DNA of 64,000 nucleotides from positions 1 to 64,000 of the IMG/VR virus record IMGVR_UViG_3300014168_000003; one strand, 5' to 3'. Below the pieces are notes generated by a model. It did no database searches. It had not been told where the DNA came from and saw only the letters and a program-made list of their open reading frames with translations. Made by a program: the position numbers and the translations under genes. Shown piece after piece: positions 9,678 through 32,145 of this stretch. Positions within the stretch are counted from its first letter, which is position 1; every line of letters starts with the position of its first letter. Source of the DNA: a virus (lineage: Duplodnaviria; Caudoviricetes).

Positions 9678-9959
9678 TTAGCGAAGTTCTTGGAACTTCT
9701 CATATTGCTTTTCGGCTTCTCCGATGATTCCCTTGAGTCTTTCCATTTCGGTTTCGATGCTTTCAGACAGCTTATCCATCAGAGCTTCAATCTCCGCATC
9801 TGACATCTTGGAAACATCATACCCTTCTTCCTTGAGTTGGGCCTGAAGTTCAGATAGCTTGTGCTCCTCAACGGCCAAGGTGCGCTTGACTTCTTCTTGC
9901 TTTTTCTCTAGACCAGAGATTCGTTTGTTCAAATCTTGGATTTCTTCAGCTAGGGCCAC
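9678..9959 (-). CDS. Coiled-coil protein, possible middle segment of split Rad50
   Basis: GTG start after AAGGAG, 2 nt after the SbcC-N stop; heptad-rich 93 aa. Confidence 0.7.
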   Translation of the reverse strand: MALAEEIQDLNKRISGLEKKQEEVKRTLAVEEHKLSELQAQLKEEGYDVSKMSDAEIEALMDKLSESIETEMERLKGIIGEAEKQYEKFQELR

Positions 9960-9961
9960 GA

Positions 9962-11194
9962 TTACTCCTTGGTGAATTGATACCCGCATTTCGGGCATGA
10001 GATGGCGTCTTTTGTGAGTTCATGTAGTTGCTGGTGGAGATCAGATAGCTCCGTAGCAATGGTCTGAGTCTTTGTTTTACAGTCTGTCACCAATACCTTC
10101 AATTTGGGGTAAGATGTGACAAGTCGGAGATCCATTATACCCCGCAACAGGTCATCCGTATTCACATCGACCATCGGTGGGGCCGCAGCTAGGCGTTTCT
10201 TTAACGGAGTGTAATCCCGCAAGAGGTTCCATCTTCGAATCAAGAGCCCCCATTTGACCGACCGTGCGGCACTCAGCACCCCAGAACCGATAGCAATGTG
10301 CTCCTGGAGCTTCTGGACCTGTCTGAGGCTTTTGCCTAGGCGAAGGTAGCGGGAAACCAGTTCGGTTGAAGGTAGGACCACCTGGGAGGCTTGACGGAGG
10401 GTTTTGACGCGACTTGAAGTCTGCGTCTTGTGAAGCAAGAGGGTGTGAACCCTGTGGGCCTTAGCCACCTTTTGAGTGGACGGAGGGGTGATACGGTTTA
10501 TGCTCTCCAGGGTCACGACCCTGCTCCACTGCACAATTCTTTGATTCAACAAGATCTGCACGGTCTGAGCCGTAGCAATTTTCTGTCGTGTGTCATCATG
10601 CTTGGGTTTAAGGGACTCGAATACCCCAAGCACTGAGCTAATCTCAGCTATTTTGGTATGACCGGCTTGGACTTCCAGGGCCAACATCTTAGCCTGGGAG
10701 TTAATTTCTGTATTGTTCAGATTGATGGCTTTTTTGCCTTGGTTCAACTGCTCAGTGTTGCTGAACAACCCAAACACGGAGTTCAACTCACTGGGGGACA
10801 GGTTCATCATGAACTGACTGTCAAACTGCCCTGCGAACGTAGGGTCCAGCTTGGCTGAACCGATTGTGATTTCGCCCAGCTTCAAGTCTTTGATTGGCTG
10901 GGGCACATCCCCATTCAGCTTGGCGAAGTCTTCCCCATTGACCCTGTAAGTGGTGGTCTTCCCTCTGGTCAGAACAGCCGTGGAGCCATTCTCTACTTCG
11001 AGCTTAAGCTCCACGGCTCTCTGACCATGACGGATGAAGGCATCCTGCACCTGATTTCGTAGAATACCGCGCAAGGATCTGACAATCGCGGATTTTCCTC
11101 GATTTGAACTGCCAACGATGATAGTAAACCCGTTGACAGTCAAATCGAAATGTTTCCAAGACTGAAAATCCTTACCTACGAGCCGAAATTTCAT
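9962..11194 (-). CDS. sbcC: Rad50/SbcC N-terminal half (Walker A, coiled coil, Zn hook)
   Basis: IIVGSSNRGKSAIVRSL P-loop, Q-loop AGQFD, coiled coil, ends CPKCG; no signature or Walker B motif. Confidence 0.88.
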   Translation of the reverse strand: MKFRLVGKDFQSWKHFDLTVNGFTIIVGSSNRGKSAIVRSLRGILRNQVQDAFIRHGQRAVELKLEVENGSTAVLTRGKTTTYRVNGEDFAKLNGDVPQPIKDLKLGEITIGSAKLDPTFAGQFDSQFMMNLSPSELNSVFGLFSNTEQLNQGKKAINLNNTEINSQAKMLALEVQAGHTKIAEISSVLGVFESLKPKHDDTRQKIATAQTVQILLNQRIVQWSRVVTLESINRITPPSTQKVAKAHRVHTLLLHKTQTSSRVKTLRQASQVVLPSTELVSRYLRLGKSLRQVQKLQEHIAIGSGVLSAARSVKWGLLIRRWNLLRDYTPLKKRLAAAPPMVDVNTDDLLRGIMDLRLVTSYPKLKVLVTDCKTKTQTIATELSDLHQQLHELTKDAISCPKCGYQFTKE

Positions 11195-11754
11195 GATTCC
11201 TCTTCAGGGGGAGTCTTGCAAGAGCAGCCTTCCTTGTCACATTCTTTCGTGGTTTCAGAGGCCATGATGTGGGCGATCAAATATTTGACCGCACTCTCAG
11301 TCATTACTCCCTTGATCGAAAGACGGAGGAAGGCTCTGATGAGATGAAAATTACGAAGGATGCAGAGCACTGTGGTAGCCAGGAGTGAGGCTGAAATGCA
11401 GAGTAAGGCTCCATGTAGCAAGGGCCAGTTGATGAAGAGAGAGGCATAGTAGAAAATGGTGAACCAGAATGCCTTGTTAGCCCATGGGAACGGCTCGGCT
11501 AGCGCATCTACGAACTTCTCCAGTGTGCCCATCTTCCGAAGGGCCTGATCGACCCCTCCGGAGTGGGCCACGGTGTAGGTCAAGACGCCTAGGAATCCAG
11601 TCAGATAGCCAGCCAGGATGATCCCTCCGGCCCACATTCCGTATTGCAGAGTAGCAGGGCTGTAGGTGAGGTTCGAGGCCATGAAGATAGTGGAACCCAA
11701 CAAGGCGAGGAACCAGAAGGTTTTGAGAATGAGGTTGTTAGAATCGATAATCAT
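11191..11754 (-). CDS. Membrane protein
   Basis: About four hydrophobic helices; Cys-rich C-terminus. Confidence 0.7.
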   Translation of the reverse strand: MIIDSNNLILKTFWFLALLGSTIFMASNLTYSPATLQYGMWAGGIILAGYLTGFLGVLTYTVAHSGGVDQALRKMGTLEKFVDALAEPFPWANKAFWFTIFYYASLFINWPLLHGALLCISASLLATTVLCILRNFHLIRAFLRLSIKGVMTESAVKYLIAHIMASETTKECDKEGCSCKTPPEEES

Positions 11755-12995
11755 GATAGATCCTGGTCCTCATCATCGAACGCCACCTTAGCGGTAATCT
11801 TCTGGTAGAAGTCTTCATCCGAAGAGGCCAGATCCTCAAGGGAAGGCTCGATTGCAAACCCGCTCTCGTCATTCTCAATGGCCGCTATGACCAGTTCTCG
11901 CAGCTTTCTCAGAACTTCAGGATTCTGCTCGACTACCAGATCTCGAATCGCGGAATCCTTGGAGTCGTAGACCATGATGGGGTCAGATTCCAAGCCCACG
12001 ATATACTTGCGGCCCACATAGGAAATGAGCTTGTAGTGGTGAGCCAGTTCTCGGATGCTGATATTGTCGTCCAACCCTAGGCCAGGACGTAGGTAGAGCA
12101 CACCCGCCCTGTAACCACCCATCGTGACCTTGTTCTTAAGGACACGAACGTTGATGCGGGTTGCCACATAGTTGTTGCCTTTGTTCTCACCGGGTTCGAT
12201 ATCCCAATCGGATTCGCCCCCACCCGCACGTAGGGCCTTGGCCACATTCACTTCGATGGTCAGAGAGGGAATGAAACGCATGGCGAATCCCCCCGGCAGC
12301 ACGTAGTTGAGGTTGGTGATGGTGCTGTACTTCGCGGCTGATTGGCCCTCACGAGACCCATCAATTCGAGCACGAATCTGGTTGACCATGATCAACACAC
12401 AGTCATAGTGCTGAGCGTAGGGAAGGAGGATATCGAAGAACATGTTCATAGTCTTGGCATGAGCACCAACGGTGTTCTTGAAAGCCTTCCCGTTCATGAT
12501 CTCCTTCTCATCCACCATGGATTTCATGCGAGGAACGGAGTCATAGATGAACACTTTCACTCCAGCCTTCATCAGTACGATGGACTTCTGGATCGCTGCC
12601 TCAACGGAGTTGTTCTTGAAGACGACCAAAGCATCCCGGTCAGTATTGACCCCGTTGGACTTGAAGTATTCAGGAGTGCTGGTTCCTTCGAAGTCGAAGA
12701 TGGCCGCAGCCTTTCCAGTCAGTCGCTGATAGGACTTGACGATGTTGTAGCAGAGGGTGGACTTACCACCGTGTTCCTTGCCGTGGATCTGAATGACCCG
12801 ACCCCCGCCAGGGATACCCTTCAGTTGGAGAACATGATCCAGGATGACCGATCCCATTGGCACGAAGGTCTCCTGAACCTCCATTTTCTGAATCGTTGGA
12901 TCTTCTCCGAAGCCATCTAGGGCTTCAAGGAATGCTGCCTTGGAATCAGGGAGTTCTCCTGCTTCTTTGTTGTGTTTAATGCGCTTTACTGCCAT
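11751..12995 (-). CDS. recA: RecA/UvsX-like recombinase
   Basis: Walker A GKEHGGKST, IFDFE, Walker B FIYDSV, NQIR, PGGFAMRF, KNKV. Confidence 0.93.
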   Translation of the reverse strand: MAVKRIKHNKEAGELPDSKAAFLEALDGFGEDPTIQKMEVQETFVPMGSVILDHVLQLKGIPGGGRVIQIHGKEHGGKSTLCYNIVKSYQRLTGKAAAIFDFEGTSTPEYFKSNGVNTDRDALVVFKNNSVEAAIQKSIVLMKAGVKVFIYDSVPRMKSMVDEKEIMNGKAFKNTVGAHAKTMNMFFDILLPYAQHYDCVLIMVNQIRARIDGSREGQSAAKYSTITNLNYVLPGGFAMRFIPSLTIEVNVAKALRAGGGESDWDIEPGENKGNNYVATRINVRVLKNKVTMGGYRAGVLYLRPGLGLDDNISIRELAHHYKLISYVGRKYIVGLESDPIMVYDSKDSAIRDLVVEQNPEVLRKLRELVIAAIENDESGFAIEPSLEDLASSDEDFYQKITAKVAFDDEDQDLS

Positions 12996-13003
12996 GGCTC
13001 TCC

Positions 13004-13882
13004 TTAGATGGTTATGGTGATCTTTTGCAGCCGCTTTTTCGGAGGAACGGTTGCGTCTTTTAAGCTAATACTGTATTCAGTGGGGGTGTAGGTGTACCAA
13101 TATGCAGGATTGTGGAGGATGCCCTTAGTCACGGTATGGGCTCTCTTACCTTTGCCCTTCACTACTGGAGTATTGTGGAGGATGCCCTTAGTCACGGTAT
13201 GGGCTCTCTTACCTTTGCCCTTCACTACTGGAGTATTATCGCAAAGGCTCAGCAACATTGGGGATTCACCAATGAGGGAGGGTTCTGAACTAAGCAGTTG
13301 AGTGACCATGCGGCCATACTCAGCAAAGAGGATCGCATCGCAAGAATCGGAATCGATGCCTGGGTAAGTTTGAGGGTCTGCAAACTCCTGGCTTTTCCGG
13401 ACGTTCTCCCATTTGTTGTCTCCAGTGGCGGTCAATCCCATGTTGGACCGCATTGTGGCAGCATTTACCTGAAGTACATGCACTTCACTAAACAATTTAC
13501 CAGTCAGAGGAAGTAGATGAGCATGAATGATTTTGGAGAGAATGTTAAGGTAATCATTCCTGGGGGTGGGGACTTCCATACAAATAATCAAGCCATTTGG
13601 TTCCCAGCTACCAGTTGCAACAGTGCTCTGCCAATGCTGCATCATCTCTCCAATCGTACTGGCTATCTGTTGAGATCTAAGCCATGTAGGAAGAGAGGTA
13701 TCATCGGGTTTAAGGGAGCCAATGTTTAACCATTGAAAGGATGTACCCACCACTTTGGCAAAGGCAAAACCGGTGCGACTAAGGGAGGGGTCAAGTCCAA
13801 TTACCAGCCATTTTTTATTATTTGACTTAGGAGGAAATGTGATTTTTTCTGCAAAAGTCTTCTTCGGTTTACGTGGTGCCAC
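13004..13882 (-). CDS. ruvC: RuvC-like Holliday junction resolvase
   Basis: VIGLDPSLSRTGFA, central ICMEVP, DSCDAI acidic triad. Confidence 0.75.
   Translation of the reverse strand: MAPRKPKKTFAEKITFPPKSNNKKWLVIGLDPSLSRTGFAFAKVVGTSFQWLNIGSLKPDDTSLPTWLRSQQIASTIGEMMQHWQSTVATGSWEPNGLIICMEVPTPRNDYLNILSKIIHAHLLPLTGKLFSEVHVLQVNAATMRSNMGLTATGDNKWENVRKSQEFADPQTYPGIDSDSCDAILFAEYGRMVTQLLSSEPSLIGESPMLLSLCDNTPVVKGKGKRAHTVTKGILHNTPVVKGKGKRAHTVTKGILHNPAYWYTYTPTEYSISLKDATVPPKKRLQKITITI
13109..13237. repeat. Perfect 63-bp tandem duplication
   Basis: 13109-13171 is identical to 13172-13234; duplicates TPVVKGKGKRAHTVTKGILHN in frame. Confidence 0.97.
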
Positions 13883-13892
13883 TACTTCTCCA

Positions 13893-13922
13893 AAATAAAA
13901 CGGGGAGCCCCGAGGCTCCCCG
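13893..13922 (-). terminator. Rho-independent terminator after SSB
   Basis: CGGGGAGCC-TCGG-GGCTCCCCG followed by TTTTATTT. Confidence 0.85.
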
Positions 13923-13941
13923 AGTCAAGCTCTTGGGCTAA

Positions 13942-14742
13942 TTACAGATCGCCATTGTCCGAGGCGTCATCATCGTTGGCTCCGGAGATGCCGGAAAGCA
14001 GGGCCTTCCACTCGATGGCGTTGATCTTGCGACCCAGCCTTGCGGTGAGCAGCTTGCCATCCAACAGGGGCTGTACGGCCTCTTCGATAGCCGCGACCAT
14101 CTCTGGATCCTTGCGGTAACGGGGCGTACGGGAGGCACGGGTGAGGGTGTAGCCGATACCAGTGGTCTCGTTGTGGGTCATGATGATGTCGAAGTCATAG
14201 ACGGTCTCCGGATTCCCGTTGGCAGCGTCTTCATCTTCCATCATACGGTTGATGGCCGTGTAGTTGGTGCGACTGAGGTTGACATGACCAATCTCCCAGT
14301 CAGTTTCCACGATCTTTCGACCGTCCTTGTCCAGACCATATTTGCCGGTCTTGGGGTCGCAATTGGTGTATTTGACCACCAGGGCGACGATGGCCAGATT
14401 GGCATTGCCAGCCAGACCGGAAGTGCAGCAGATGCCCTCATTCTCCTCTGTGGAGAGGCAACGGAACGTGCCCTTCTTATCGATGTAGTGATTGAACGCC
14501 TTCTTCGGCTTGATGAAGGGGAGGATGGCGAAGCGAACGGCCTTGCCCTTCTCCGGCTTGACCCGTGGCATCGGATCCTTCTTCTTCATCAGTTCGGTAT
14601 CACCCCAGTCGCAGTCGAGTTCTTCCTCGTTCTCTAGAGTTTTCTTCCCTGCTGCGGGGGCTCCTTTTTGACCCGCACCGGCCTTTGACCCGGCCTTAAG
14701 GTCTAGCTCTTCGTCTTCGTCAAACTTTGGCTTGTTCGCCAT
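13942..14742 (-). CDS. Single-stranded DNA-binding protein (gp32-like)
   Basis: VRFAILP, HY, FRC...CC Zn ligands, acidic termini; next to recA; highly biased codon usage. Confidence 0.7.
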   Translation of the reverse strand: MANKPKFDEDEELDLKAGSKAGAGQKGAPAAGKKTLENEEELDCDWGDTELMKKKDPMPRVKPEKGKAVRFAILPFIKPKKAFNHYIDKKGTFRCLSTEENEGICCTSGLAGNANLAIVALVVKYTNCDPKTGKYGLDKDGRKIVETDWEIGHVNLSRTNYTAINRMMEDEDAANGNPETVYDFDIIMTHNETTGIGYTLTRASRTPRYRKDPEMVAAIEEAVQPLLDGKLLTARLGRKINAIEWKALLSGISGANDDDASDNGDL

Positions 14743-14771
14743 ATGTGTGCTCCTTGCTCTTTAATTGATAC

Positions 14772-16184
14772 TCAGAATGAGTCGTCAAAAGTGATCTTTC
14801 TTCGATCTTTTTTGACCGGTTGAACTTCCGCTGGTACTGCTGGTTTCTCTGGTTCTGGCTCTGGATTTACGGCTGGGGGCTCCGGGGTAGAGGCAGGGAC
14901 AGAGATACCATCTTCATCATCTTCATCGTCATATTTTGGCTTACTCTTAGGTTTGGGCTGGATGGCTTTTTCACCTTTTTCTTTCACCAGGGTGGGGCCA
15001 TCTTCTCCTTGCACTACTTTGACATCTCCGACAAATGGATCGTGGATGATTTCAGCCGGTTGTCTATTCCTGGTTATCTCTACAGCATCCCCTTCGACTT
15101 CATCAAAATCGTGACGCTTTACTACCAATGGAGTCCAAGTTTCTGGATGAGCAGCTACATATTCCGCATCCTCATTCGAGTTCTCCCCATGGGTAACTCC
15201 AGTGTCAGGAAGCTGGGCGAGTAAGTCTTCCATTGAAGTGAGCTTGGGAGAGACCAGCATCTGGAGAAGAGCTTTATCTTCAGCTTCTTGAACCGCATCC
15301 AACTGCTCTTCATGCCATTTTTCTGCTGCCTCTTTGAGTTCCCCACCCAATACAATACCCACTTCTGGCTCTTCTACGGTGCCCTGAACCATCTTCACAA
15401 TTTTGTCACTAAGCGGGTGGCCAGCAAATTCGCGCCTTTCGACGTAATTTGGATCTCCCTCATCAGATGGAAGCCCACTTTCAGACTCTTCCTCATCATC
15501 ATATTTAGGCTTCTGAGGCTCCTCTGTAAGGGAGCCATACCGCTGCTTCAACAGAGGATAGGGGTCTTCGTTCTCCATTAAGCCTTGGCTGGATGGCATC
15601 CGCAGGAGAGAGGCATTGGCCTGTTCGGTGCCCAGCTTATACTTCTCCATGGCCAATTTCTTCGCACTCTTCAGATGCTCAATCAGCATACTGATCGCAT
15701 CCTCCATGCCTTCCAGGACTACCTCTTCACCAATCAAACGGGTGAACTCTGATTCAGCCAGGGCCTTGCAGACAGAAGCCGTGAACTTAAGATCATGGGC
15801 CTTGAGGATTTCAGTGATGGCAATCTGGTACCATACGGTGAATGCCGCCTCCAGTCCATCTTTGTTGTGGATGGCCGCACGGACTTTTCCCAAAAAGAAT
15901 AGGGCTCGACTGTGAATGGATTCGATCTTATCAGTGACCAACTGTAGAGACTGAGTGAGTTGCACCAGATAAGACTGAGCCGTGCCGGGGGCTACAGAGG
16001 ATAGGAGAGTGATTTGCTCGACCCCATCCGCTTCTTTCAACAACCTCAAGTAGTAGTCATCAAAGGAGTAAGCCTCCTCAGATGATTTGTAGGTGAAGGT
16101 CGAGCGGAGCTTTTCCACCTTCTCAAGCAGCCCTGTTCCCTCCAGGACCGTCTCAGCTTTCAGTTGATTCAATATCGGTAACAT
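14772..16184 (-). CDS. Hypothetical protein: helical N-half, acidic disordered C-half
   Basis: 470-aa ORF; repeated KPKYDDE motif. Confidence 0.75.
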   Translation of the reverse strand: MLPILNQLKAETVLEGTGLLEKVEKLRSTFTYKSSEEAYSFDDYYLRLLKEADGVEQITLLSSVAPGTAQSYLVQLTQSLQLVTDKIESIHSRALFFLGKVRAAIHNKDGLEAAFTVWYQIAITEILKAHDLKFTASVCKALAESEFTRLIGEEVVLEGMEDAISMLIEHLKSAKKLAMEKYKLGTEQANASLLRMPSSQGLMENEDPYPLLKQRYGSLTEEPQKPKYDDEEESESGLPSDEGDPNYVERREFAGHPLSDKIVKMVQGTVEEPEVGIVLGGELKEAAEKWHEEQLDAVQEAEDKALLQMLVSPKLTSMEDLLAQLPDTGVTHGENSNEDAEYVAAHPETWTPLVVKRHDFDEVEGDAVEITRNRQPAEIIHDPFVGDVKVVQGEDGPTLVKEKGEKAIQPKPKSKPKYDDEDDEDGISVPASTPEPPAVNPEPEPEKPAVPAEVQPVKKDRRKITFDDSF

Positions 16185-16494
16185 CTACTTCGCCTCTTTC
16201 AGTCAAAAATTGTTTCACTCGTTCGGTGCGTTTCCGGCCCATAGCAATCAGATCCTTGAACAATGGGGCCTTCACGACTCCTCCCACGTACCTGCTGCCC
16301 TGCACTGCTTCCCATGCCTCTAACTGAAGATCCAGAACCCTTTTCAAGATCTCATCATAGTCATTGATGGGGATACCTTCCTGCCCTTCAGGGACTTCAC
16401 CACGCAGCGAGACAAATCGTTCAGACCCTCGTCCATAGTCTACATCCCCGACTTTAAGACTAACCATCACTGCTGTTACGGTCATATTGGTCAA
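16153..16494 (-). CDS. Hypothetical protein
   Basis: 113-aa ORF overlapping its neighbours. Confidence 0.65.
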   Translation of the reverse strand: MTNMTVTAVMVSLKVGDVDYGRGSERFVSLRGEVPEGQEGIPINDYDEILKRVLDLQLEAWEAVQGSRYVGGVVKAPLFKDLIAMGRKRTERVKQFLTERGEVDVTDIESTES

Positions 16495-17260
16495 CGGTCT
16501 TCTCCATCTTGGCTATTCTGGTCTGAACCGGATCATTTGCATCGGTCAGCATCTTTTGATTAATACCCGTTATCCCGATGCCCTGGTGAACGTCCATTTC
16601 AGTTGTTTTTTTCACTTTTGCTCCACTCTCTCCCTTTGATTCTTCCCTAGTTATATGAACAAACCGATCCAGTCCGAGGATGTCTTTAATGAAGTCTTTG
16701 AACGACAGAGGGATAGCTTTATCATCCTTCATCTTGGCAAAGTTAGGATTGACTAGCCATGTCAGATTCTTCTTTCCCATCCGATCCCCGATCAGCATCC
16801 GAACATTATCATAGTGCTGGACGTAAGGGGGCCACATGGCGGCTCTGATAATGAGAAGCTGAGGGGCGGTCAGAAGAGCGAACTTCTCCGCATAAGGCAT
16901 GTTGCCAAACCGGATATCGGTTACTTCCACCATCGTGGTTTCTCTCCACGTAATGGGACGGCGACCCTTGCTGATTGCATCATAGAACTCATCTGTCAGG
17001 GCCTTTCTCAGATGAACTGAGAACGCCTCCATACTCCCATCCAGAGAGTCCACCTCTATGAGTCCATTCCCTCTTCGTTTGAGCAAGAAGGGGGAGAGTT
17101 TTGAGGGCGAACTGATCTCAGGGAATGTAGTCAGAGAGCCTAGTTGAGTCGCCAACTGCCTCTTAAAAAAACAAGTGCAGAACTCCAACATTCCGTTAGC
17201 AAGTCTTATGTACCCGGAGCCGTTGCAGCGAGGGCATTCCGGAGTTTCATTTAGGTCCAC
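16460..17260 (-). CDS. DnaC/helicase-loader-like protein with Zn ribbon, degenerate ATPase
   Basis: N-terminal CPRCNGSG...CTC typical of DnaC/IstB-like loaders; APQLLII and LIGDRM...TWLVN echo the AAA+ core, but there is no intact GKT. Confidence 0.45.
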   Translation of the reverse strand: MDLNETPECPRCNGSGYIRLANGMLEFCTCFFKRQLATQLGSLTTFPEISSPSKLSPFLLKRRGNGLIEVDSLDGSMEAFSVHLRKALTDEFYDAISKGRRPITWRETTMVEVTDIRFGNMPYAEKFALLTAPQLLIIRAAMWPPYVQHYDNVRMLIGDRMGKKNLTWLVNPNFAKMKDDKAIPLSFKDFIKDILGLDRFVHITREESKGESGAKVKKTTEMDVHQGIGITGINQKMLTDANDPVQTRIAKMEKTVDQYDRNSSDG

Positions 17261-17263
17261 TTA

Positions 17264-19219: not shown

Positions 19220-19225
19220 CTTACG

Positions 19226-19233
19226 TATTACTC
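19226..19233 (-). promoter_or_regulatory. Promoter-like motif GAGTAATA upstream of SNF2
   Basis: Recurrent octamer, 6 nt before the GTG start. Confidence 0.6.
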
Positions 19234-22286: not shown

Positions 22287-22302
22287 CGTGGTTAAAAACG
22301 CA

Positions 22303-23184: not shown

Positions 23185-23247
23185 ATAAATTTCCCTTTAA
23201 GCTGCATAAAAGAAAATCAGAACACACTCTTAGGAATTACCTTTGAA

Positions 23248-24036
23248 CTAAGAGGGTTTAGCGGGGTAGCCCTTCTTCTTATAGCCGAACACCCATCCCT
23301 CTGCTAAAAACCCAGGAATATCGATTTCCTGAACTCGTCTAGATTCGTGACTATTGTTCATCCACTTGCCCCTTGGAAGGGCGCGTAGCTTAGCTTTGGT
23401 CTCTTCAGAAGAATGTGTACCTTCGTGTAGCTCAGATAAATGCTGTCGTTGTTCTATCGAAAGGTGCCCACCTTTATTCCAGCCCACCTTCCCAGCATTT
23501 TTTCCTAAATTACTTAACCCTATTTTCTTTTTGGTTTCTTCAGAGGGGAGGTATCCCTCTCTAGTTTTAAGCATTCGCTGTCGTATGGTTGGATCATCTT
23601 GGTGCATTTTCTTCATTCGTTCTGATTGTCGTTGTCGCTGCTCAGGTGTTAGCTTCATGCCCAATGTAGTAGACGGAGTAGGTGAGATGTTATAACCGTT
23701 ATCAATAACATCGTAAACCCCCATCCAGTATTTCTCTCTAGCATTAAGAATTGAAGGAGTCTTTTCACAAACTTCCAAAATACCAAAGACCCAATCTTGA
23801 GGAGAATATTTATCCCAGGCAGCCTGTAATTTTTGATGCTTGTTTTTGTAAGCTCCTCGCATCAAACACTTCCAATGGTTGTACCATCGTCCATATATCC
23901 CTGTCTTTCCAGCAGCTTGTCCGACATAAGATTTTCCAGATTTCTTATTATATATCCTATATACTCCAATAATTACTTCAGAAAACCCATTAGCTGAATG
24001 AAAGTAGTTTCTTTGTTCAATATTTCGGTATGGCAT
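23248..24036 (-). CDS. Free-standing GIY-YIG homing endonuclease with NUMOD3-like repeats
   Basis: IGVYRIYN...YVGQA...RW; repeats such as SEETKKKIG and SEETKAKL; AT-rich relative to its flanks. Confidence 0.9.
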   Translation of the reverse strand: MPYRNIEQRNYFHSANGFSEVIIGVYRIYNKKSGKSYVGQAAGKTGIYGRWYNHWKCLMRGAYKNKHQKLQAAWDKYSPQDWVFGILEVCEKTPSILNAREKYWMGVYDVIDNGYNISPTPSTTLGMKLTPEQRQRQSERMKKMHQDDPTIRQRMLKTREGYLPSEETKKKIGLSNLGKNAGKVGWNKGGHLSIEQRQHLSELHEGTHSSEETKAKLRALPRGKWMNNSHESRRVQEIDIPGFLAEGWVFGYKKKGYPAKPS

Positions 24037-24075
24037 AACTATCTCCCTGTAGCATATCTATACAAGGAGGTAGTT
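24037..24075 (-). promoter_or_regulatory. Hairpin sequestering the RBS of the GIY-YIG gene
   Basis: Minus strand AACTACCTCCTTGTA-TAGATATGC-TACAGGGAGATAGTT directly before the ATG; 14/15 pairs including one G-U. Confidence 0.75.
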
Positions 24076-24096
24076 AGTTGTGTTCTTTTCCAAACC

Positions 24097-25179
24097 TTAT
24101 TTTCTAGAATTTAAAATCCTCACATAATTCAGGCAACCAGAAGCGGTCGCATCAAACGGAGTTGCAGAAAGTCTGGCCTCTGAAACTTTAAATCTCACAT
24201 CAAGGTTTTCCATGAAAATTTTGTTGAAAAGTTTCATAAAATTAGGAGATTTAGTAGTGCCTCCGGCCAAAACAACCGGAATCATCCCAGGAATCTCTAC
24301 CCTATTCTCATTGAAAGCAAAATATTTATTAGTTGCATTGACCAACTTAGTAATTAGGTCAGTATAGGCTACTGAGATAGCTTCAGCTTGCCGTTCAGTC
24401 TGAGTGTCATCAAACTCACCCTGAGCCGTTACCACCCCTGTCATCAAATCAACACCCCGCTCCTTCAACAAGGTGATATGAGAGAGGGTGGAATCAGTTG
24501 CCTTTGCTGCCATATGGTCGATGTAGTCTCCGCCAAATGGAAGGGCAAAGGACTTAACTGGTATTGATTTAAAGGTAAGGGCTAAATTTGATGTGCCAGC
24601 CCCAAAACTAATGGCCAATCCAGTGAGGGGCACTTCATCCTTGTTCTTTGGGGAAACAGTCTCATTGAAACATACAGAGACCGCCTCATTGACCGGACGG
24701 GCTGTATAACCCAGATCAGTGATGAGATTCTTGAAGAAACTAGTATGGAAGGCAAGAGAGGTATCCCCACTAGTCTTAGGGGCAACAGTGGACTCAAGGT
24801 CAAAGATAGGGCCGGGGACTGAGAAGGCCACGAGTTCCCCCGGAACCTGGGGTTTGCCAAGGATCTGTTGAAGGATGAGTTGGAGAATCTCCTTACCATC
24901 CTCTTCTTTAGGACTGATAAAGCCCTTGCTGAGAGGGCGGCGTAGCTCCCCTCCGAGTACACCAATCAGGTTGATCGCATCATTGCCGACCACATAGACT
25001 TCTTCCGCACCCTCAATAAACTCCACTCCAGCGATTTCCAATGCAGGAGATTGGTCGAGAGGAAGAGCCAGGAAGCAATCTCTTACTGAGCTAATTTTGA
25101 CTTTATTGTCGATGTCAGATTTGGCAGAGACGATGTAGGCGGTACCAATATCTAATCCTATTCCGGTGGTGTTTGGCAT
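24097..25179 (-). CDS. Actin-fold ATPase (MreB/ParM/FtsA superfamily)
   Basis: Phosphate-1 IGLDIGTA, RRPL..G, connect-1 NEAVSV, phosphate-2 ISFGAGTSN, FGGDYID, adenosine VVLAGGT. Confidence 0.88.
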   Translation of the reverse strand: MPNTTGIGLDIGTAYIVSAKSDIDNKVKISSVRDCFLALPLDQSPALEIAGVEFIEGAEEVYVVGNDAINLIGVLGGELRRPLSKGFISPKEEDGKEILQLILQQILGKPQVPGELVAFSVPGPIFDLESTVAPKTSGDTSLAFHTSFFKNLITDLGYTARPVNEAVSVCFNETVSPKNKDEVPLTGLAISFGAGTSNLALTFKSIPVKSFALPFGGDYIDHMAAKATDSTLSHITLLKERGVDLMTGVVTAQGEFDDTQTERQAEAISVAYTDLITKLVNATNKYFAFNENRVEIPGMIPVVLAGGTTKSPNFMKLFNKIFMENLDVRFKVSEARLSATPFDATASGCLNYVRILNSRK

Positions 25180-26255
25180 TTTGACTCCTTGGTCAGTTTA
25201 ATTTTTATTACTGTAGAATGTTGATTCGATTTATCCGAGGTTTCACTTTTCGGGGGTAGGATCGAATGTTCATCCAATTCCGCGATCATTTTTGGGGAGA
25301 AACGGTAAGAATCACCGTAATACTTAACCACATCCTTGTAGGTTTTGATCCGACTATCATCTTTGAACAGAGTCTCCATGATGGCCTGTTTAAGGATTGA
25401 ATAGAAGATAAACGCACTCTTTGGTTTTTTGATGTCGCTAGACTCAATGGCCGCTAATGTTTCTTTAATTATAACTTTTGGGTCTTTGATGCCACTGAAT
25501 ATCAACTTCTTTGTCATGGCAGTCACCGTCTTCTGCCGACCATACTTGACTTTTTTCTCATCCGGTTCGTCAGATGGGAGAGGTTCGGTAACCTCTACAA
25601 CAAACTCCAGATCTTTGGCCAAAGTCATGATGGCCTCATCACTGTACTCTTTCACATACTCATCCACCAGATCAGAATAATAGAACACCCTAGAGTGAGG
25701 AGGCACAAAACTCAAATCCTTAAGATTGTGTAGGGGGGTGTCGATGAACATTTGCCTTGTCTTGAGTTCGACTCTGACCAGGGCATAACCCCGATCTATA
25801 CGAGACACATGTCCACAGAACCCTTTGTCCAAACCATCCAGAATACGAACAAAAGAGCCGACCTGAATAGATTCGGGGCTCTTCATGAACTTCTCTTCAG
25901 TCGTCTTGATCAGGTCTTGGACGTAATCGTCTTCCACCATCAGAGCCTTATCGATCCGCTGCTGCTCTCCCTCACAAAGGACTCCCACCACACCCGTGAC
26001 TCCTTTGAATTTCTGCAATTCTTTCTTTCGATCAGAGCGAAGGAACACATAGGAGGAGGTGGATAGGCTGAACAGATTAAGATCTCGGTCTTCAATCGGA
26101 ACAAACACTTCACAAGATCCCCCATCCTTGAAGATGGTGGGCATGGTTTTACCAACACGACGAATCACATTCTCTACCGTTCGCTCCGACCTGACTTCAA
26201 GGATATACCACTTGAGTCCCTTGAGCTTTTTGATATCACCGTATTGAAGAATCAC
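25158..26255 (-). CDS. nusG: NusG/RfaH-like transcription factor with C-terminal extension
   Basis: NGN domain (KWYILEV...EVFVP...SYVFL...GVVG) and KOW (IQVGSFVRILDGLDKGFCGHV); about 175 extra aa. Confidence 0.85.
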   Translation of the reverse strand: MILQYGDIKKLKGLKWYILEVRSERTVENVIRRVGKTMPTIFKDGGSCEVFVPIEDRDLNLFSLSTSSYVFLRSDRKKELQKFKGVTGVVGVLCEGEQQRIDKALMVEDDYVQDLIKTTEEKFMKSPESIQVGSFVRILDGLDKGFCGHVSRIDRGYALVRVELKTRQMFIDTPLHNLKDLSFVPPHSRVFYYSDLVDEYVKEYSDEAIMTLAKDLEFVVEVTEPLPSDEPDEKKVKYGRQKTVTAMTKKLIFSGIKDPKVIIKETLAAIESSDIKKPKSAFIFYSILKQAIMETLFKDDSRIKTYKDVVKYYGDSYRFSPKMIAELDEHSILPPKSETSDKSNQHSTVIKIKLTKESKCQTPPE

Positions 26256-27267
26256 CGATATTACTCGCTTCAGAAATAATTTTGTTCCAACTTTCCTCCG
26301 TGGCGATTGGAGCCCGTTGGACCTCCTTTTTTAGAGAAGGGGAGGAGATGAGGACTGGCAGTTCCACAGCTTTTCTTGAATCCGCCAATTCTTTTATGAG
26401 AATAAACAACGCTGATGGGGGAGGGGTGATAACAGATTTCCATTTGATGAAAATGTCTCCCACCCTTATATAATTACTCAGTTTTTCGGCAATAACTCCA
26501 AGAGATTTTGTACTATCATAAAAAGCCATCGAATATACTTCAAATAAAGTATCGATAAGCTCTTCCATGGGATGCATATCTTTAATCGAGCCAGCCATTT
26601 TCATAATATCCGGATGATCGATGTTAGATAACAGTTTGATGGCCTGTTCCTCAATATTTACTTGAAGTTTACGCACCGTCCCTACCGTTATGTCTCCCAC
26701 TACCGAAGTGGCCTGAAGATCAAGAATAGCCCGTGAGGGAATGTCAGAACTTCTGGCAGCTATGAGATTAAGAGCCTCTAGTTCAAAGTTGAGGTGATGA
26801 CTGGCGCAAATGGAGCCGAGCAGACCGACCATATCTGTTCGACTTGGTTTCAGACAAGGGATTCGCAAAGCCCTGGCCCTGAGTCCCTTATGCACTTTGT
26901 TGTAGCTGACACAGAGGAAGATGGAAACTGTCTTAACGTCTGACCGATCCAGGTATGCACAAAGTTGATCCGCCTGTTCGGTGGATAGCCGCTCCGCATG
27001 ATCCCAGATCAGGCAAGTGTATTCATCCAAATCCTCTTGTTGCAATATTTGTGAGAAAAACTCAGGCTGGACGACTTTGGGTTTGACATCAGGGAACAAA
27101 TCATGGAAAAACAGTTTAGCCATGGTGTTCTTCCCTACCCCATTCAGGCCATCGAACACATAGCAAGAGGGAGCACGATCCCGGTTCTCCAGGATCGCTC
27201 TCAGCAACTCCAGTGATCTAGTGTTGCCCACAATTTGATTCAGCGATACTGGTGCCCAGAAATTCAA
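26236..27267 (-). CDS. Clamp-loader (RFC / DNA Pol III gamma-tau)-like AAA+ protein
   Basis: SLNQIVGN, YVFDGLNGVGKN Walker A, degenerate Walker B WDHAE, ARAL, EALNLIA...RAILDL. Confidence 0.8.
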   Translation of the reverse strand: MNFWAPVSLNQIVGNTRSLELLRAILENRDRAPSCYVFDGLNGVGKNTMAKLFFHDLFPDVKPKVVQPEFFSQILQQEDLDEYTCLIWDHAERLSTEQADQLCAYLDRSDVKTVSIFLCVSYNKVHKGLRARALRIPCLKPSRTDMVGLLGSICASHHLNFELEALNLIAARSSDIPSRAILDLQATSVVGDITVGTVRKLQVNIEEQAIKLLSNIDHPDIMKMAGSIKDMHPMEELIDTLFEVYSMAFYDSTKSLGVIAEKLSNYIRVGDIFIKWKSVITPPPSALFILIKELADSRKAVELPVLISSPSLKKEVQRAPIATEESWNKIISEASNIGDSSIR

Positions 27268-27292
27268 CAGTGCTCCCTCTTCCTACTATCTA

Positions 27293-28600
27293 TTACCTGG
27301 ATTCTTTGATGTCCTTGAGCACGGAGTAGTAGGTGAACACCGATTCCTTCATCGAATCATAGCTCATCTTCCAATACTCTGCAATCGTCGGAGCACTACC
27401 GGTAGCCTTGATATGGGTCTTGATCATTCGCCTGTAGTTGTCGATGTTCAGACCACAGACCCGCAGCCCCGGAAGATCCTTGTGGAACAGCACAGGGGAT
27501 GCCTGAATGCTGAACAACTTCTCCAGGAATTTCCTGGATTCTCCGTTCTTGGCAATGCGGTCAGTGTAGTGGCAGAACGTAAGATCCGCGACCGCGACCC
27601 GAGCCGACTCATGGGAATTGAGAAGCTCCGTCACTTCGTAAGTGCTCCTCGCTGCCGTGGGAGACACGAAGCGGGGGTCCAGGAAGAGGGCCAGGGGTGC
27701 GGACATGCCGACATGAAATCCCTGGATCTCGCTGAACGCACAGTACGCCTTCAGGATCTTCTCCATAACCGCATTGGAGTCTGGTTCCACTCCATCGGCT
27801 CCGTGGAGCTTGAACTCTTCCAGACGCCGCACCACATCATCCTTGATCACCGAAGTGCTGTACAGTGTCTCCAGAGCCCCGGAAACGTCATCTGCGTTGA
27901 TGTCCCCGACCAGATCATCAGGAGTCGTGAAGATCAATCCCATTTCATCCAGAAGGGTCATGATGGGCTCAAGGATCGCCTTCGCACCGCTGCTGATCCA
28001 GATGTAACCCATGTTGAAGTCAATGACCACCTGATGGTGCTTGCGGACGAAGGTGTTGATATCTTCCACCTGTTCGGTGATTTGCTTCTTGATGTCCGCA
28101 GACTGGAACTTGAAGGGGGCTCCGTAGTTGTAGGCCAGATGCTCCTTCTTGCTGTTCACATCCATTGCGTCGATGTATTCGAACATCATTACCCACATGC
28201 CGTACACACCAGGGGAGAACTGCCACTGGTCCAAACTCGGCTCCCAGAAGGGCTCCAGGGGGACATGAATCTTCCCTGAGATAAGCTCATCATCCATCAT
28301 CTCCCATTCACGGAGATTGGTCTGGTTGTTGATGAAACACTCCAGGTCTTCCGATTTGAAGTCCTTTGCCGTCTTGTCCACGTAGAACTCGATCTCTTCC
28401 AGATCACCCATGCGGGGTTGCTGGAAGGGAGCGAGACCGATAGTAGAAGACTTCTCGTGGATCGCCTCGCTAATGGCCACAAGGGGAATGTAGCGAGACC
28501 CAGCGGCTTCGAACGCTGTCTTGAAGGCTTCCAATGGGGCCACACCCCCATCACCCTGCACTAGTTTCAGCAGGGTCCATGTTCCTTTACCAAACATCAT
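27293..28600 (-). CDS. Hypothetical protein, possible RdgC-like DNA-binding protein
   Basis: Segment IKKQITEQVED...FVRKHHQVVIDFNMGYIWISSGAKAILEPIMTLL resembles the RdgC core; remote similarity by eye only. Confidence 0.4.
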   Translation of the reverse strand: MMFGKGTWTLLKLVQGDGGVAPLEAFKTAFEAAGSRYIPLVAISEAIHEKSSTIGLAPFQQPRMGDLEEIEFYVDKTAKDFKSEDLECFINNQTNLREWEMMDDELISGKIHVPLEPFWEPSLDQWQFSPGVYGMWVMMFEYIDAMDVNSKKEHLAYNYGAPFKFQSADIKKQITEQVEDINTFVRKHHQVVIDFNMGYIWISSGAKAILEPIMTLLDEMGLIFTTPDDLVGDINADDVSGALETLYSTSVIKDDVVRRLEEFKLHGADGVEPDSNAVMEKILKAYCAFSEIQGFHVGMSAPLALFLDPRFVSPTAARSTYEVTELLNSHESARVAVADLTFCHYTDRIAKNGESRKFLEKLFSIQASPVLFHKDLPGLRVCGLNIDNYRRMIKTHIKATGSAPTIAEYWKMSYDSMKESVFTYYSVLKDIKESR

Positions 28601-28606
28601 TGTGGT

Positions 28607-28759
28607 TTACCCCTTCATCTTAAGGATGATGTGGGCTCCGATGCAGAGGATCACACCCGCGATAAGACCGTGGATGAGTCCGAAATTGAGGAGCCAGGAA
28701 CCAAGAGTGACGACCGCCACTCCGCCGACTGAGTAGAAAAACTTTGCTACGTTGTTCAT
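28607..28759 (-). CDS. Small two-TM membrane protein (50 aa, not in ORF track)
   Basis: MNNVAKFFYSVGGVAVVTLGSWLLNFGLIHGLIAGVILCIGAHIILKMKG*; ATGA-coupled to the upstream gene. Confidence 0.65.
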   Translation of the reverse strand: MNNVAKFFYSVGGVAVVTLGSWLLNFGLIHGLIAGVILCIGAHIILKMKG

Positions 28760-29121
28760 TGTGCCTCCTTGGGCAGTGAATCAGGCTTGCTAGTATTGAT
28801 ACTGTCTTGCATCAATTTCGCAAGCCTGGATTTTTCATTTTCAAGAACTGCTTTGACTTCTTCAGATAGGGGCCAAGTGGTGATGATCTGGTCCACCGCA
28901 GCCACGAAATCTGCATAGGAGCAGCCGGTATTGAGCCAGCCCCCTCCATCTTGAAGGGAGTAGTCAATAAACGGAGTGACGGTTCCATCCTCCAAAGTGA
29001 GATCGTAAATCCAATAACGCTCACATTCCCCGGAGATAAAAACATCCATCATCTCTGCCGTGTCACGATGCTTGAAGACCTTATATAAGGCTCCTCTGAG
29101 TAGGGGGATAGAGTCAATCAT
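28756..29121 (-). CDS. Hypothetical protein
   Basis: 121-aa ORF; GAGTATTA motif 22 nt upstream. Confidence 0.65.
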   Translation of the reverse strand: MIDSIPLLRGALYKVFKHRDTAEMMDVFISGECERYWIYDLTLEDGTVTPFIDYSLQDGGGWLNTGCSYADFVAAVDQIITTWPLSEEVKAVLENEKSRLAKLMQDSINTSKPDSLPKEAQ

Positions 29122-29842
29122 CGTGTTCCCCTTCTATGGTCTTTAATACTCGACGGAGAGCCAGTTTTGTACCAACTGTCTTCAGCGCACCAGATGGGTC
29201 ATCACCGGGGCAGTCACCGATAGCCTCTACCGGTATGTCCAGGATTTTACTCAGAATGATCTTAGATTTTTCACCCGCTTCATCATGATCGAACAATAGG
29301 TAAAGATGTCGCACTCCAAGGATCTTAAGGTAAGCCACATGTTTCTCTCCAATAGATTTGGTAAGGGAAGACATGATGGGGAGGTTAGGGGCCATGATTT
29401 TTGCAGCTACCAAATCAAACGGCCCCTCAGCCAGTGTGACCGACTTCAATCGTAGGATCTTCTCCAGGGTCTGGTCAGTATTCCCGATCCAGGTAGGGCC
29501 TAGGAAGACCTTTTGGCTCACTCCCAGCGTGTGATATTTACCGGGGCCAAACAGGTCATGGAGGAGGGGCTTTGTCTGGGCACTGGTGGTGTGTCCTGCC
29601 GCATCCACCTTGGGGAACACGAACATAGGGCCAGGGATCATTTTCTTGGGGACATAATAAGCCCCAAGTTCTTGCAAAACTGGAATGACCTCAGACTCCT
29701 TGATTTTCCAGCCTCGAAGTGCGATCATCTTTTCAGCCGTGACTTGCCACATGTCTCGACCTATCTTCTCGTACAGCTTCTCAGTTCTGGACCTCAATTC
29801 GTTAAGGTCATTCCACCATGCATCTTGTAAATATAAACTCAT
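29114..29842 (-). CDS. dnaG: DnaG-type primase catalytic (TOPRIM) domain without Zn-binding domain
   Basis: FVFP.VD..G, GKY, TLAEGPFD, LLFDHDEAG, DDPS motifs; no CHC2. Confidence 0.82.
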   Translation of the reverse strand: MSLYLQDAWWNDLNELRSRTEKLYEKIGRDMWQVTAEKMIALRGWKIKESEVIPVLQELGAYYVPKKMIPGPMFVFPKVDAAGHTTSAQTKPLLHDLFGPGKYHTLGVSQKVFLGPTWIGNTDQTLEKILRLKSVTLAEGPFDLVAAKIMAPNLPIMSSLTKSIGEKHVAYLKILGVRHLYLLFDHDEAGEKSKIILSKILDIPVEAIGDCPGDDPSGALKTVGTKLALRRVLKTIEGEHDD

Positions 29843-29845
29843 AGG

Positions 29846-30025
29846 CTACTCGCTGATTCCCGCACACTCCATACAGACACATGGGCCGTCCCCTAGCGGA
29901 GACATGCAGTACAACTCGTAGTCTACACGCTTCCCGCATTCCATGCAAGTATGTTCGTCAACAAATCGAGCCATGAGTCGATCTATTCGGGCCTCCGATA
30001 GTTCAATAGGGTCAGGAACGTGCAT
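29846..30025 (-). CDS. Small Zn-finger protein (59 aa, not in ORF track)
   Basis: MHVPDP...CMECGK...CVCMECAG*. Confidence 0.6.
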   Translation of the reverse strand: MHVPDPIELSEARIDRLMARFVDEHTCMECGKRVDYELYCMSPLGDGPCVCMECAGISE

Positions 30026-31043
30026 TGGGCCTCACCATGGAATTTCGATCAGCCCAGGCCCAGAAAGCGGCATCACCTTGAGTGCGAAGCTGCCAGTCAT
30101 CCAGCCACTCTGCATCGGGTTTGTCCCGAAGAATGGAGGTTTCAAACAATTCGTCACCCGTGCAGATGAGACGGTCGATGATGTCACCCACCTCACGGTT
30201 TGTCAGTTTGCCATTCCGAATGTCCAGAAGCAATGGGGCTTCAGGTCGAGGGTAAGTGAGGTTGCCAGTGGTGAGGATTTCATTCATCTCACTGGTAATA
30301 CGGACACTGTGATACATGGCCTTCAGGTCAATGCCCTTATCCTCTTTGGCTTGCTGGGAACGACCACCATAGCGACTGCGAAGGTCCATCAGGGGTGTTA
30401 CCCACAGCTTAAGTGGGGTGGTCTCACCAAAGCTCTTACCACAGATTTCGATGTGCCGAACGTCCATGTTGACCGTATGCTCAACCCACAGTCTAGCCCC
30501 CTCAGCATCCTTATAATGCTCCATGAGCCCACAGAAAGCCGATTCATGAAGACGGCCATTGGGAGTAACCTCCTTCTCATCCAAGAACATTTTGATGTCC
30601 TCAATGAAATGATCCAGAGTCCGGAGCCGCTCACCCTTCAGGCTGTATTTCTGAGCCTGGGAACGAGCGTAGCCGACAAAAGGTCGGAGATTCTTGCTCA
30701 CCAATCGAGCCTTGTTCTCCACCAGTTCATCCCATGCATCAGAAGTGCTGACCACCAATTCCTTCGGCGTGAACAACATGCTATAAGCCAGGGTCTGACC
30801 CTGTTTGAGCATACGGCAGAAATTGGAGATGTGATGAGCCTCAAACTCGACTTTATGGCTCCCAGCCCCTTCCACCGTGTTCTCCGCATCAGTCTTGTTG
30901 AAAACCAATTCTTCCATGTCACAGACGAACACGGCTTTCAGGTCCGTGTCAGAAGTGGGGAGAGCGGTACCAAACAGTTTGGAACCATATATCGTTTTGA
31001 CCAGAAGTTTCATATCAGATCCAATGCAGGAAAAAGTGAGCAA
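30012..31043 (-). CDS. Pol-beta-superfamily nucleotidyltransferase (likely start ATG 31013)
   Basis: IYGSKLFG...SDTDLKAVF (GS...DxD); C-terminal DLKAMYH.VR helical domain typical of phage RlaP-like NTases. Confidence 0.85.
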   Translation of the reverse strand: MLTFSCIGSDMKLLVKTIYGSKLFGTALPTSDTDLKAVFVCDMEELVFNKTDAENTVEGAGSHKVEFEAHHISNFCRMLKQGQTLAYSMLFTPKELVVSTSDAWDELVENKARLVSKNLRPFVGYARSQAQKYSLKGERLRTLDHFIEDIKMFLDEKEVTPNGRLHESAFCGLMEHYKDAEGARLWVEHTVNMDVRHIEICGKSFGETTPLKLWVTPLMDLRSRYGGRSQQAKEDKGIDLKAMYHSVRITSEMNEILTTGNLTYPRPEAPLLLDIRNGKLTNREVGDIIDRLICTGDELFETSILRDKPDAEWLDDWQLRTQGDAAFWAWADRNSMVRPNARS

Positions 31044-31115
31044 TCAGAAGAACGGTCACTACAGCTATTATACCCACAACATCGACAATTCGTATAGGCT
31101 CATTCGCTGGTTTGT

Positions 31116-31532
31116 TCATTTTTTTTCCAACGTATCCTGAGTCTGTCGCTGCTCCATCCCGATCAACCCTTCCTTGGTTCGCTCATACTCAGCAGGGTCA
31201 TCAAATTGACTCAAAACCCACAAAAGTGTAGCGATATCCCGATAATCACGAAGCATCCGCTGTGTGTTACAGATATCCTCCCTGAACGCTACGGCCAATT
31301 CCTCTTTTGTGAGTTCAGGCTCGAAACACATAGGGTTCAAGCAGACTTCAGGGTCTCTGGAGCCACAACCTTCGCAGAACCACTCTTTCTTCACATCATC
31401 CCATACTTTATGAGCGCAGTTAGAGCCCTTGGGCTTGAGTCTGGCCTTAACGTATCGTTTACGATGTCGCTGAAGGAGTTCTTTTAGCCTTGCCAGAATC
31501 TCCAGATCGGACTTTACTTTGATTTGAGCCAT
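31116..31532 (-). CDS. Hypothetical Cys-rich protein
   Basis: C..H...CEGC...C..P.C pattern. Confidence 0.65.
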   Translation of the reverse strand: MAQIKVKSDLEILARLKELLQRHRKRYVKARLKPKGSNCAHKVWDDVKKEWFCEGCGSRDPEVCLNPMCFEPELTKEELAVAFREDICNTQRMLRDYRDIATLLWVLSQFDDPAEYERTKEGLIGMEQRQTQDTLEKK

Positions 31533-32145
31533 TTGCCCTCAATTCATCTAGTTCATCAGAGGTAAGCTCCCGCAGGAGCGGCCCCGTCTCTACACTCAAT
31601 ACTCGGTCTGCCGCACAAGCCAGCAGAGGCTGCTGAGTAATTGACAAAATAGTGTAATCGTGGTCATCACAGAGGGATTTGAGCATCTCCGAGACCTTGG
31701 GAAGCCGGTCAGCCGACACATTGTTGAACGCCTCATCCAAAATAATCAGTTTATTCAGTTTGAACCTCTGGATCATGATGACTCTCAGCAGGAAGGAGAT
31801 AACATTGACAACCCCTCCACCCATGGTGTCGATTGGGGGACCGATCACATCACCTTCTTGGACCATAAGGCGGTATGAATCGCCCCTGGCCCCTTCCTTG
31901 CGCTCAATCACAAGTTGAAGATCCTGATCAAAAACCAGCTTCAGTCCATCGGAAACGATGGATTCCACCTTGCCAATACCGTTCGCACTGATGACCTGAA
32001 TGGCCTTATCGATGACACCCAGAGCCTTCGTATTCATGATCTTCTGAGCTTCCAGATCATCAATCTTGACTTGATTTCGTTGGAGAATGGTCTGTTCGGT
32101 GAGCAGGCCGGAGCGCACAGATTCGAATTGAGAGTTGAAGTCCAT
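31459..32145 (-). CDS. sbcC: Rad50/SbcC C-terminal half (signature and Walker B)
   Basis: Short coiled coil then TMGGG signature, SFLLR, LIILDEAF Walker B, SITQ at the H-loop; no Walker A. Confidence 0.88.
   Translation of the reverse strand: MDFNSQFESVRSGLLTEQTILQRNQVKIDDLEAQKIMNTKALGVIDKAIQVISANGIGKVESIVSDGLKLVFDQDLQLVIERKEGARGDSYRLMVQEGDVIGPPIDTMGGGVVNVISFLLRVIMIQRFKLNKLIILDEAFNNVSADRLPKVSEMLKSLCDDHDYTILSITQQPLLACAADRVLSVETGPLLRELTSDELDELRANGSNQSKVRSGDSGKAKRTPSATS

Follow-up and report, generated by a model that had tools for sequence, protein, structure and literature searches.

An SbcC/Rad50-type ATPase that appears to be naturally split into separately encoded, conserved pieces in large phages

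The stretch of DNA analysed here (hereafter the window) comprises 64 kb of a 74-kb viral contig from IMG/VR (positions 1 to 64,000 of record IMGVR_UViG_3300014168_000003). CheckV rates this contig as 24% complete, and the genome of the corresponding phage is therefore expected to be about 300 kb in size. Three genes located on the window's minus strand appear to encode pieces of a single SbcC/Rad50-type ATPase: an N-terminal half (N-half, positions 9962–11194), a small coiled-coil protein (9678–9959), and, some 20 kb away, a C-terminal half (C-half, 31459–32145). The gene for an SbcD/Mre11-type nuclease (7213–8229) is located on the same strand. The original prediction, made from the letters of the window, had described these pieces as a naturally split SbcC.

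The N-half consists of 410 amino acids (aa), with an ATPase lobe at its N-terminus, a helical part of about 250 residues, and a zinc-hook motif, CPKC. The Walker A motif (GSSNRGKS, G28–S35) and the invariant Q-loop glutamine (Q123, within FAGQFDSQF) expected in the N-terminal ATP-binding cassette (ABC) lobe of Rad50/SbcC are both present, and residues 147–394 are helical in the AlphaFold2 (AF2) model. The protein ends in SCPKCGYQFTKE, with the stop codon positioned 7 residues past CPKC. In the alignment of 14 N-half family members, C400, P401, and C403 are invariant and all members end 7–12 residues later. The profile aligns to the hook of P. furiosus Rad50 (6ZFF/1L8D) at the correct position and with marginal E-values (0.012–0.018), which is consistent with a zinc hook at the C-terminus of the N-half, where Zn would be bound. 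Translation and the modelled helices bear out the architecture originally proposed for this gene, i.e. Walker A, Q-loop, and a coil that stops after the hook.

Pfam AAA_23 was matched by 12 of the 14 N-half family members. Among PHROG families, the N-half matched PHROG 16465 ('exonuclease') with an E-value of 3.7e-13. A tblastn search aligned 98% of the query to gp8 of Bacillus phage 0305phi8-36 (1e-8), the matching region of which scores 58 bits on AAA_23. A single-sequence search of the PDB with the N-half found nothing.

The C-half (228 aa) begins with a helix (residues 3–72), which is followed by an alpha/beta ATPase lobe with a GGG signature, Walker B (LIILDE), and an H-loop (TQQP); a disordered tail starts at residue 208. 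Its AF2 model has a mean predicted local distance difference test score (pLDDT) of 80. The top Foldseek matches of this model, namely 1xew_Y, 3kta_D, 3qkr_B, 1ii8_B, and 1f2t_B (E-values of 1e-7 to 3e-6), are the C-terminal chains of two-chain head crystal structures of structural maintenance of chromosomes (SMC) proteins and Rad50. PHROG 15167 ('ATPase') was matched with 2e-16. The signature, Walker B, D-loop, and H-loop of a Rad50/SbcC C-terminal lobe are recognizable, with deviations in the signature and the H-loop. Namely, the signature reads xGGG, not SGG, throughout the C-half family, and 8 of 22 aligned C-halves, that of the window among them, have glutamine in place of the H-loop histidine (residue ~171); most relatives possess THQP. 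Walker B residues D137–E138 are invariant in the C-half family alignment (A1). The same features, a coil of about 70 aa plus signature, Walker B, and an H-loop changed from His to Gln, had been noticed at the outset, and both translation and the AF2 model agree with them. A search of the PDB with the A1 profile was topped by noise from TAL-effector repeats and yielded no passing stretches.

The small coiled-coil protein (93 aa) is translationally coupled to the N-half. As originally described, its open reading frame (ORF) starts 2 nt past the N-half TAA; the start codon is GTG (position 9959), with an AAGGAG ribosome-binding site (RBS) 5 nt upstream. The longest form of this frame covers positions 9678–9998. 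The protein is wholly helical, with two helices around a conserved central turn, L-K/R-E-x-G-Y/V/I-D/E, which is kept across very distant phages. A homologue of 92–99 aa is located directly 3′ of every hook-ending ORF examined, i.e. in five IMG/VR genomes, a 305-kb contig, Tunturiibacter phage Tunturi_5 (gp180), 0305phi8-36 (gp7), and the locus of a permuted single-chain relative, P0241. This pattern supports the small coiled-coil gene as a constant third partner of the SbcC halves, as far as gene order and conservation can tell. No known family was matched by the small protein in profile-library searches. Against the PDB, its profile yielded no more than noise from coiled coils, apart from one Cpl-7-like repeat that matched by chance.

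The putative nuclease partner (338 aa) contains the metallophosphoesterase motifs DIH, GGD, GNHD, and GHDH. It passes the cut-off of Pfam Metallophos (3.9e-7), matches PHROG 100 ('SbcD-like'; 5.6e-9), and displays weak matches to the mre11/sbcd models of NCBIfam. The gene belongs to the N-half cluster, which is headed by a UvsX/RecA-like recombinase gene (11751–12995, minus strand; Pfam RecA, 1.2e-21; PHROG 97, 2.4e-43) and continues with a 187-aa protein, the N-half, the small coil gene, three small genes, and SbcD. Both Tunturi_5 and the 305-kb contig have UvsX, N-half, and SbcD linked as well. In Tunturi_5, this cluster also holds RuvC and SSB.

To judge from its distribution, the split of SbcC is natural and conserved in phages. 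All large related IMG/VR records with a C-half (10/10) contain exactly one N-half each, at a distance of 17–131 kb, and the two halves are on opposite strands in two of these records (G003 and G008). A near-identical phage is represented by a 313.6-kb record (G001) rated 100% complete, in which the halves are 19.4 kb apart. Its C-half protein is identical to that of the window, the two genes differing by 63 synonymous and 0 non-synonymous substitutions. The 305-kb contig, from JGI, carries the N-half, a 2-nt gap, a 94-aa gene, further genes, and a Metallophos gene, with the C-half ~22 kb off. Tunturi_5 encodes UvsX, the N-half gp181 (ending in CGKC), the 97-aa coil protein gp180, and SbcD gp177; its C-half, gp14, is located 108 kb from the N-half. 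In Microbacterium phage Magritte, the two halves are gp155 and gp2. The exhaustive profile search revealed 3720 C-half clusters (50% identity) at E ≤ 1e-3 and 2039 at E ≤ 1e-10. Among the best 150 clusters, all except two comprise proteins of 85–266 aa, as expected for C-halves that stand alone or for fragments of these. Stand-alone C-halves form more than 2000 clusters, and thousands of phages share the split. The number of homologues per piece ranges from tens to thousands for the N-half, the small gene, and the C-half. Megablast of both window loci against GenBank phages gave zero matches. With the ten large records, Tunturi_5, the 305-kb contig, and the Bacillus phages described below, the check suggested in the original prediction, whether relatives keep the split, has a positive outcome.

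The metagenomic origin and low completeness of the contig could point to an assembly artefact or to a decaying broken gene. The identical layout, however, recurs in other samples, which were assembled independently, and in cultured phages that have been sequenced. Internal stops are absent, and each piece is under strong purifying selection, with low ratios of non-synonymous to synonymous substitution rates (dN/dS) against close relatives (0.13 for the N-half, 0.05 for the C-half, and 0.019 for the small protein, the most constrained of the three). The probability of an artefact or of decay is, in our opinion, negligible. A later joining of the pieces by splicing, trans-splicing, a split intein, frameshifting, or readthrough is also highly improbable. 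The small ORF frame, if read from an upstream ATG, overlaps the N-half end by 37 nt, which might be taken as a sign of such joining. Each piece, however, is provided with a start codon and an RBS of its own, the halves occupy opposite strands in two relatives, and the 7–12 residues that follow CxxC are too short for an intein. Also, the N-half/small-gene junction varies among relatives (−14, −8, −4, +2, +9, +13, and +206 nt), so that no conserved slippery site for frameshifting is present. Selection, independent records, co-occurrence, and breadth are thus the grounds on which we exclude artefact, decay, and joining of the pieces in cis.

The pieces are differently arranged in some relatives. 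In 0305phi8-36 (L010:3966–8002), SbcD (Metallophos) is fused to an N-half that ends in CPTC (gp8); this gene is followed by those for the 92-aa coil protein gp7, for gp6, and for gp5. The latter, annotated as 'chromosome segregation ATPase', corresponds to the C-half (hhalign, 98.9%; E-value of 2e-17). The gp6 protein (238 aa), encoded between the pieces, has no family match. An earlier study listed gp8 of this phage as an Mre11/Rad50 fusion, in which one NTPase segment 'was not observed' (PMC3175470). According to the profile alignment, the segment reported missing is the separate gene gp5. In the Bacillus cereus prophage phBC6A51, a single operon contains BC1852 ('SbcC', ending in CPLC), the C-half BC1855 (98.3%), and SbcD (BC1857). 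P0241 (647 aa, L042:1692–3635) is a single chain in which the C-half stands in front of the N-half and which ends in CPTC; this is a circular permutation. In its locus, the SbcD gene is located upstream, and the end of P0241 is overlapped by the gene for a 96-aa coil.

The motif sets of the N-half and the C-half are complementary, with nothing duplicated. Most probably, therefore, the two are parts of one Rad50/SbcC-type ATPase, which would be assembled in trans and would work with the neighbouring SbcD. We regard this as the best reading because the pieces occur in three gene arrangements, because of the near-universal presence of SbcCD in jumbo phages (PMC7824862), and because no other candidate is present in a complete genome: the 313.6-kb G001 genome contains no further match to AAA_23 or SMC_N. 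A different explanation is that the halves do not belong to one enzyme, the C-half serving another Walker-A protein or the N-half being a non-catalytic scaffold on its own. The halves are located in different gene clusters, at a distance of 17–131 kb from each other and not always on the same strand, which would fit this explanation, as would the conservation of the C-half neighbourhood itself (clamp, 138-aa protein, primase). It is, however, difficult to reconcile with a complete genome devoid of any other SMC/ABC N-lobe, with the strictly one-to-one co-occurrence in the ten records, with the permuted single-chain fusion and the operon adjacency in Bacillus phages, and with the fact that a lone C-lobe cannot bind ATP. 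We consider it quite unlikely.

Several points weigh against assembly of one enzyme in trans. The physical interaction between the N-half and the C-half is something we infer indirectly, from comparative evidence, which is strong as regards their partnership. The N-half of the window itself is below Pfam thresholds. Its AF2 model as a lone chain is poor (pLDDT 59.5; predicted template modelling score, pTM, 0.22) and was for this reason used neither for fold search nor for arm geometry; the N-lobe (residues 1–140) folds poorly alone, with pLDDT values of 32–52. The xGGG signature and the H-loop glutamine of the C-half suggest that the ATPase kinetics may differ. Finally, the candidate return strands fall far short of the outgoing strand of the arm in length, which makes a simple full-length antiparallel arm doubtful.

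The proposed machine would consist of four separately translated proteins (SbcD, the SbcC N-half, the 93-aa coil protein, and the SbcC C-half) and would serve in DNA-end and hairpin processing of the Mre11-Rad50 (SbcCD) type, presumably as an active nuclease. Production of the 93-aa protein would accompany that of the N-half, whereas the C-half would be supplied from the gene 20 kb away. The N-lobe (N-half residues 1–146) and the C-lobe (C-half residues ~73–200) would join non-covalently as one ABC-ATPase head, similar to laboratory two-chain Rad50 heads. The 70-residue helix of the C-half would pack antiparallel on the first part of the N-half helix and form a head-proximal stub, the docking site of SbcD. 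Zn on the terminal CPKC motifs would join two N-halves at their tips, and the small protein may bind the hook-proximal part of the arm.

Models of Rad50/SbcC assume that ATP-driven head movements reach the zinc hook by way of an uninterrupted coiled coil that folds back on itself. A folded-back antiparallel coil made of a single chain is absent here; the chain ends 7 residues past CPKC, and the C-lobe gene is 20 kb away. The original prediction envisaged an antiparallel arm assembled in trans from two to three polypeptides. Of this idea, the complementary and conserved pieces stand, with assembly as their probable fate, and the simple antiparallel arm is doubtful, since the lengths mismatch. 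In the nine systems compared, the outgoing helical part (the N-half minus the lobe of ~146 residues) comprises ~227–339 residues with large indels, whereas the candidate return strands are constant (~70 plus 92–99 residues). In the window, return candidates total ~165 residues versus ~250 outgoing residues. Because of this mismatch, the arm has to be partly self-folded, single, or paired with that of the other N-half. A stricter version holds that the arm is no intramolecular antiparallel coil: past the stub of ~70 residues, the N-half helices would be self-folded or parallel with those of a second N-half, with a shared Zn cap at the chain ends and the 93-aa protein as an obligatory clamp. This version is conceivable, and we rate its chances as modest. 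If true, the topology of this SMC arm would be a distinct one, and Mre11-Rad50 function would not require a chain that is covalently continuous through the hook.

The small protein may be the return strand of the arm or a clamp or adaptor, and we lean slightly to the former. As an adaptor or regulator, it would not be a piece of the arm but, for instance, a detached coil-binding module like the C-terminal part of SbcD or LmuC, or it would clamp two N-half arms that run in parallel; this role is a serious contender, with a probability somewhat short of even. In Lamassu, the SbcD C-terminal domain was separated to yield LmuC (PMC12663957), which counts in favour of an adaptor. So do the conserved central turn, which is at variance with one continuous helix, and the constant size of 92–99 aa in the face of an outgoing strand that varies by more than 100 residues. 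Also, the small protein is separate even where both ATPase lobes are fused (P0241), and no fused longer forms of it were found among 8000 candidates in a search that was weak; the latter result likewise weighs against the trans-assembled arm. Conversely, the small protein is always encoded directly after the hook, where a returning strand would start, and the stop and start codons often overlap. The small protein is retained in 0305phi8-36 despite the existing covalent link of SbcD to the N-half, and its sole, weak profile matches are to coiled-coil regions of SMC/Rad50 proteins.

The best single-profile match of the N-half is PADLOC LmuB, a CxxC-SMC protein (8e-12, residues 14–409), followed by weaker matches to Old and GajA. 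This raises the question of a Lamassu-like or other defence or counter-defence CxxC-SMC system in place of an SbcCD-type recombination nuclease. LmuB itself is, however, derived from SbcC (PMC12663957). No effector or partner of the LmuA or LmuC type was detected, and PADLOC gave no other matches; instead of a Lamassu operon, the neighbours include UvsX and SbcD, and in Tunturi_5 also RuvC and SSB. The partner is a metallophosphoesterase of the Mre11/SbcD type, which is fused to the N-half in 0305phi8-36, and the gene is the sole SbcC candidate in a jumbo phage, a group in which SbcCD is near-universal. A defence function is therefore improbable to about the same degree as two unrelated halves.

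With canonical Mre11-Rad50/SbcCD (P. furiosus, E. coli, and T4 gp46/gp47), the phage system shares the two-lobe ABC head, the long helical arm, the CxxC hook, a partner of the Mre11/SbcD type, and the genomic link to a RecA/UvsX recombinase. Unlike canonical SbcC, the phage chain is cut 7–12 residues past the hook, and the C-lobe, with a return helix of ~70 residues, is encoded 17–131 kb away. Further differences are the separate 93-aa coil protein, the xGGG signature, and, in the clade of the window, the H-loop glutamine. Laboratory two-chain heads (1F2T/1F2U, 1II8, 3QKR, and 1XEW) likewise have the N- and C-terminal head halves as separate chains, which form a working head. These, however, are engineered truncations that lack arm and hook, whereas the phage split is natural and its N-half keeps the outgoing arm and the hook. 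Mre11/Rad50 fusions of the Mimivirus R555 type (Yoshida, Claverie and Ogata, 2011; PMC3175470) include gp8 of 0305phi8-36, the N-half relative; SbcD of the window phage is unfused. LmuB, with its sequence kinship to the N-half and a CxxC apex in common, is one chain that works with LmuA and LmuC, in contrast to the SbcD-type nuclease partner of the phage. T4 topoisomerase gp39/gp60 and NrdA of Aeromonas phage Aeh1 (PMC3045599) are also essential enzymes made as separate, reassembling polypeptides. In those cases, the pieces are adjacent and the splits often result from mobile elements; the phage SbcC pieces are distant, and the split is ancient and widespread.

No description of a natural split emerged from literature searches on Rad50/SbcC in split, bipartite, or fragmented form, in which one apparent lead (PMC8066314) proved false. 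The phage SbcC is apparently an undescribed architectural variant of a well-known enzyme. This lineage may serve as a natural test of which covalent connections the Rad50 machine needs. For annotation, stand-alone proteins labelled 'ATPase', 'chromosome segregation ATPase', 'RecN', or 'EcfA2' in jumbo phages are often the missing half of SbcC.

The C-half was originally thought to possess its own promoter-like motif, which we could not substantiate. The sigma-70 scan revealed no promoter on the C-half strand, TTGACT and TATTAT are separated by 28 nt, and the window shows no enrichment of the local 9-mer (24 matches versus 19.5 expected). The gap upstream of the C-half (32146–32193, minus strand; 48 nt), between it and a tail-fibre gene, contains a 13-bp hairpin (RNA fold −26.4 kcal/mol, z −5.0), the 3′ arm of which includes the GGAG RBS. 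This RBS-covering hairpin could be an attenuator or a translational occluder of the C-half. As a conserved regulator, it was rejected, being absent from a 93%-identical relative (L015). Since no sigma-70-like promoter is present and the hairpin is not conserved, a distinct regulatory design for the C-half is not supported.

The C-half neighbourhood, for which gene names were taken from Tunturi_5, is conserved in its own right. A Cys-rich protein of 138 aa (31116–31532, minus strand in the window) is encoded 3′ of the C-half in all 19 related loci, a TOPRIM primase is located 3′ in 16, and a clamp-like gene 5′ in 14 of them. In most relatives, gene order thus places the C-half within a replication cluster (clamp, C-half, 138-aa protein, and primase) and not in a distinct regulatory unit. 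In the clade of the window, tail-fibre-like genes, not a clamp gene, precede the C-half. The 138-aa protein has no family match in profile-library searches; it usually precedes the TOPRIM primase and may be an accessory factor of the primase or of the C-half. A TOPRIM-only primase is encoded near the C-half of the window (29114–29842, minus strand).

Two further genes of the N-half cluster deserve mention. The 187-aa protein (11191–11754, minus strand) has about four hydrophobic segments. Its gene separates that of the UvsX-like recombinase from the N-half gene, the stop and start codons overlap, and the protein is conserved in the 305-kb contig (184 aa). This is reminiscent of the membrane anchors proposed for T4 gp46/47 and of the small transmembrane gene that adjoins SbcC in phage SPN3US (PMC5105663). 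A dCMP-deaminase-like gene with a weak PHROG match (8847–9476, minus strand) is located inside the cluster, between the N-half and SbcD.

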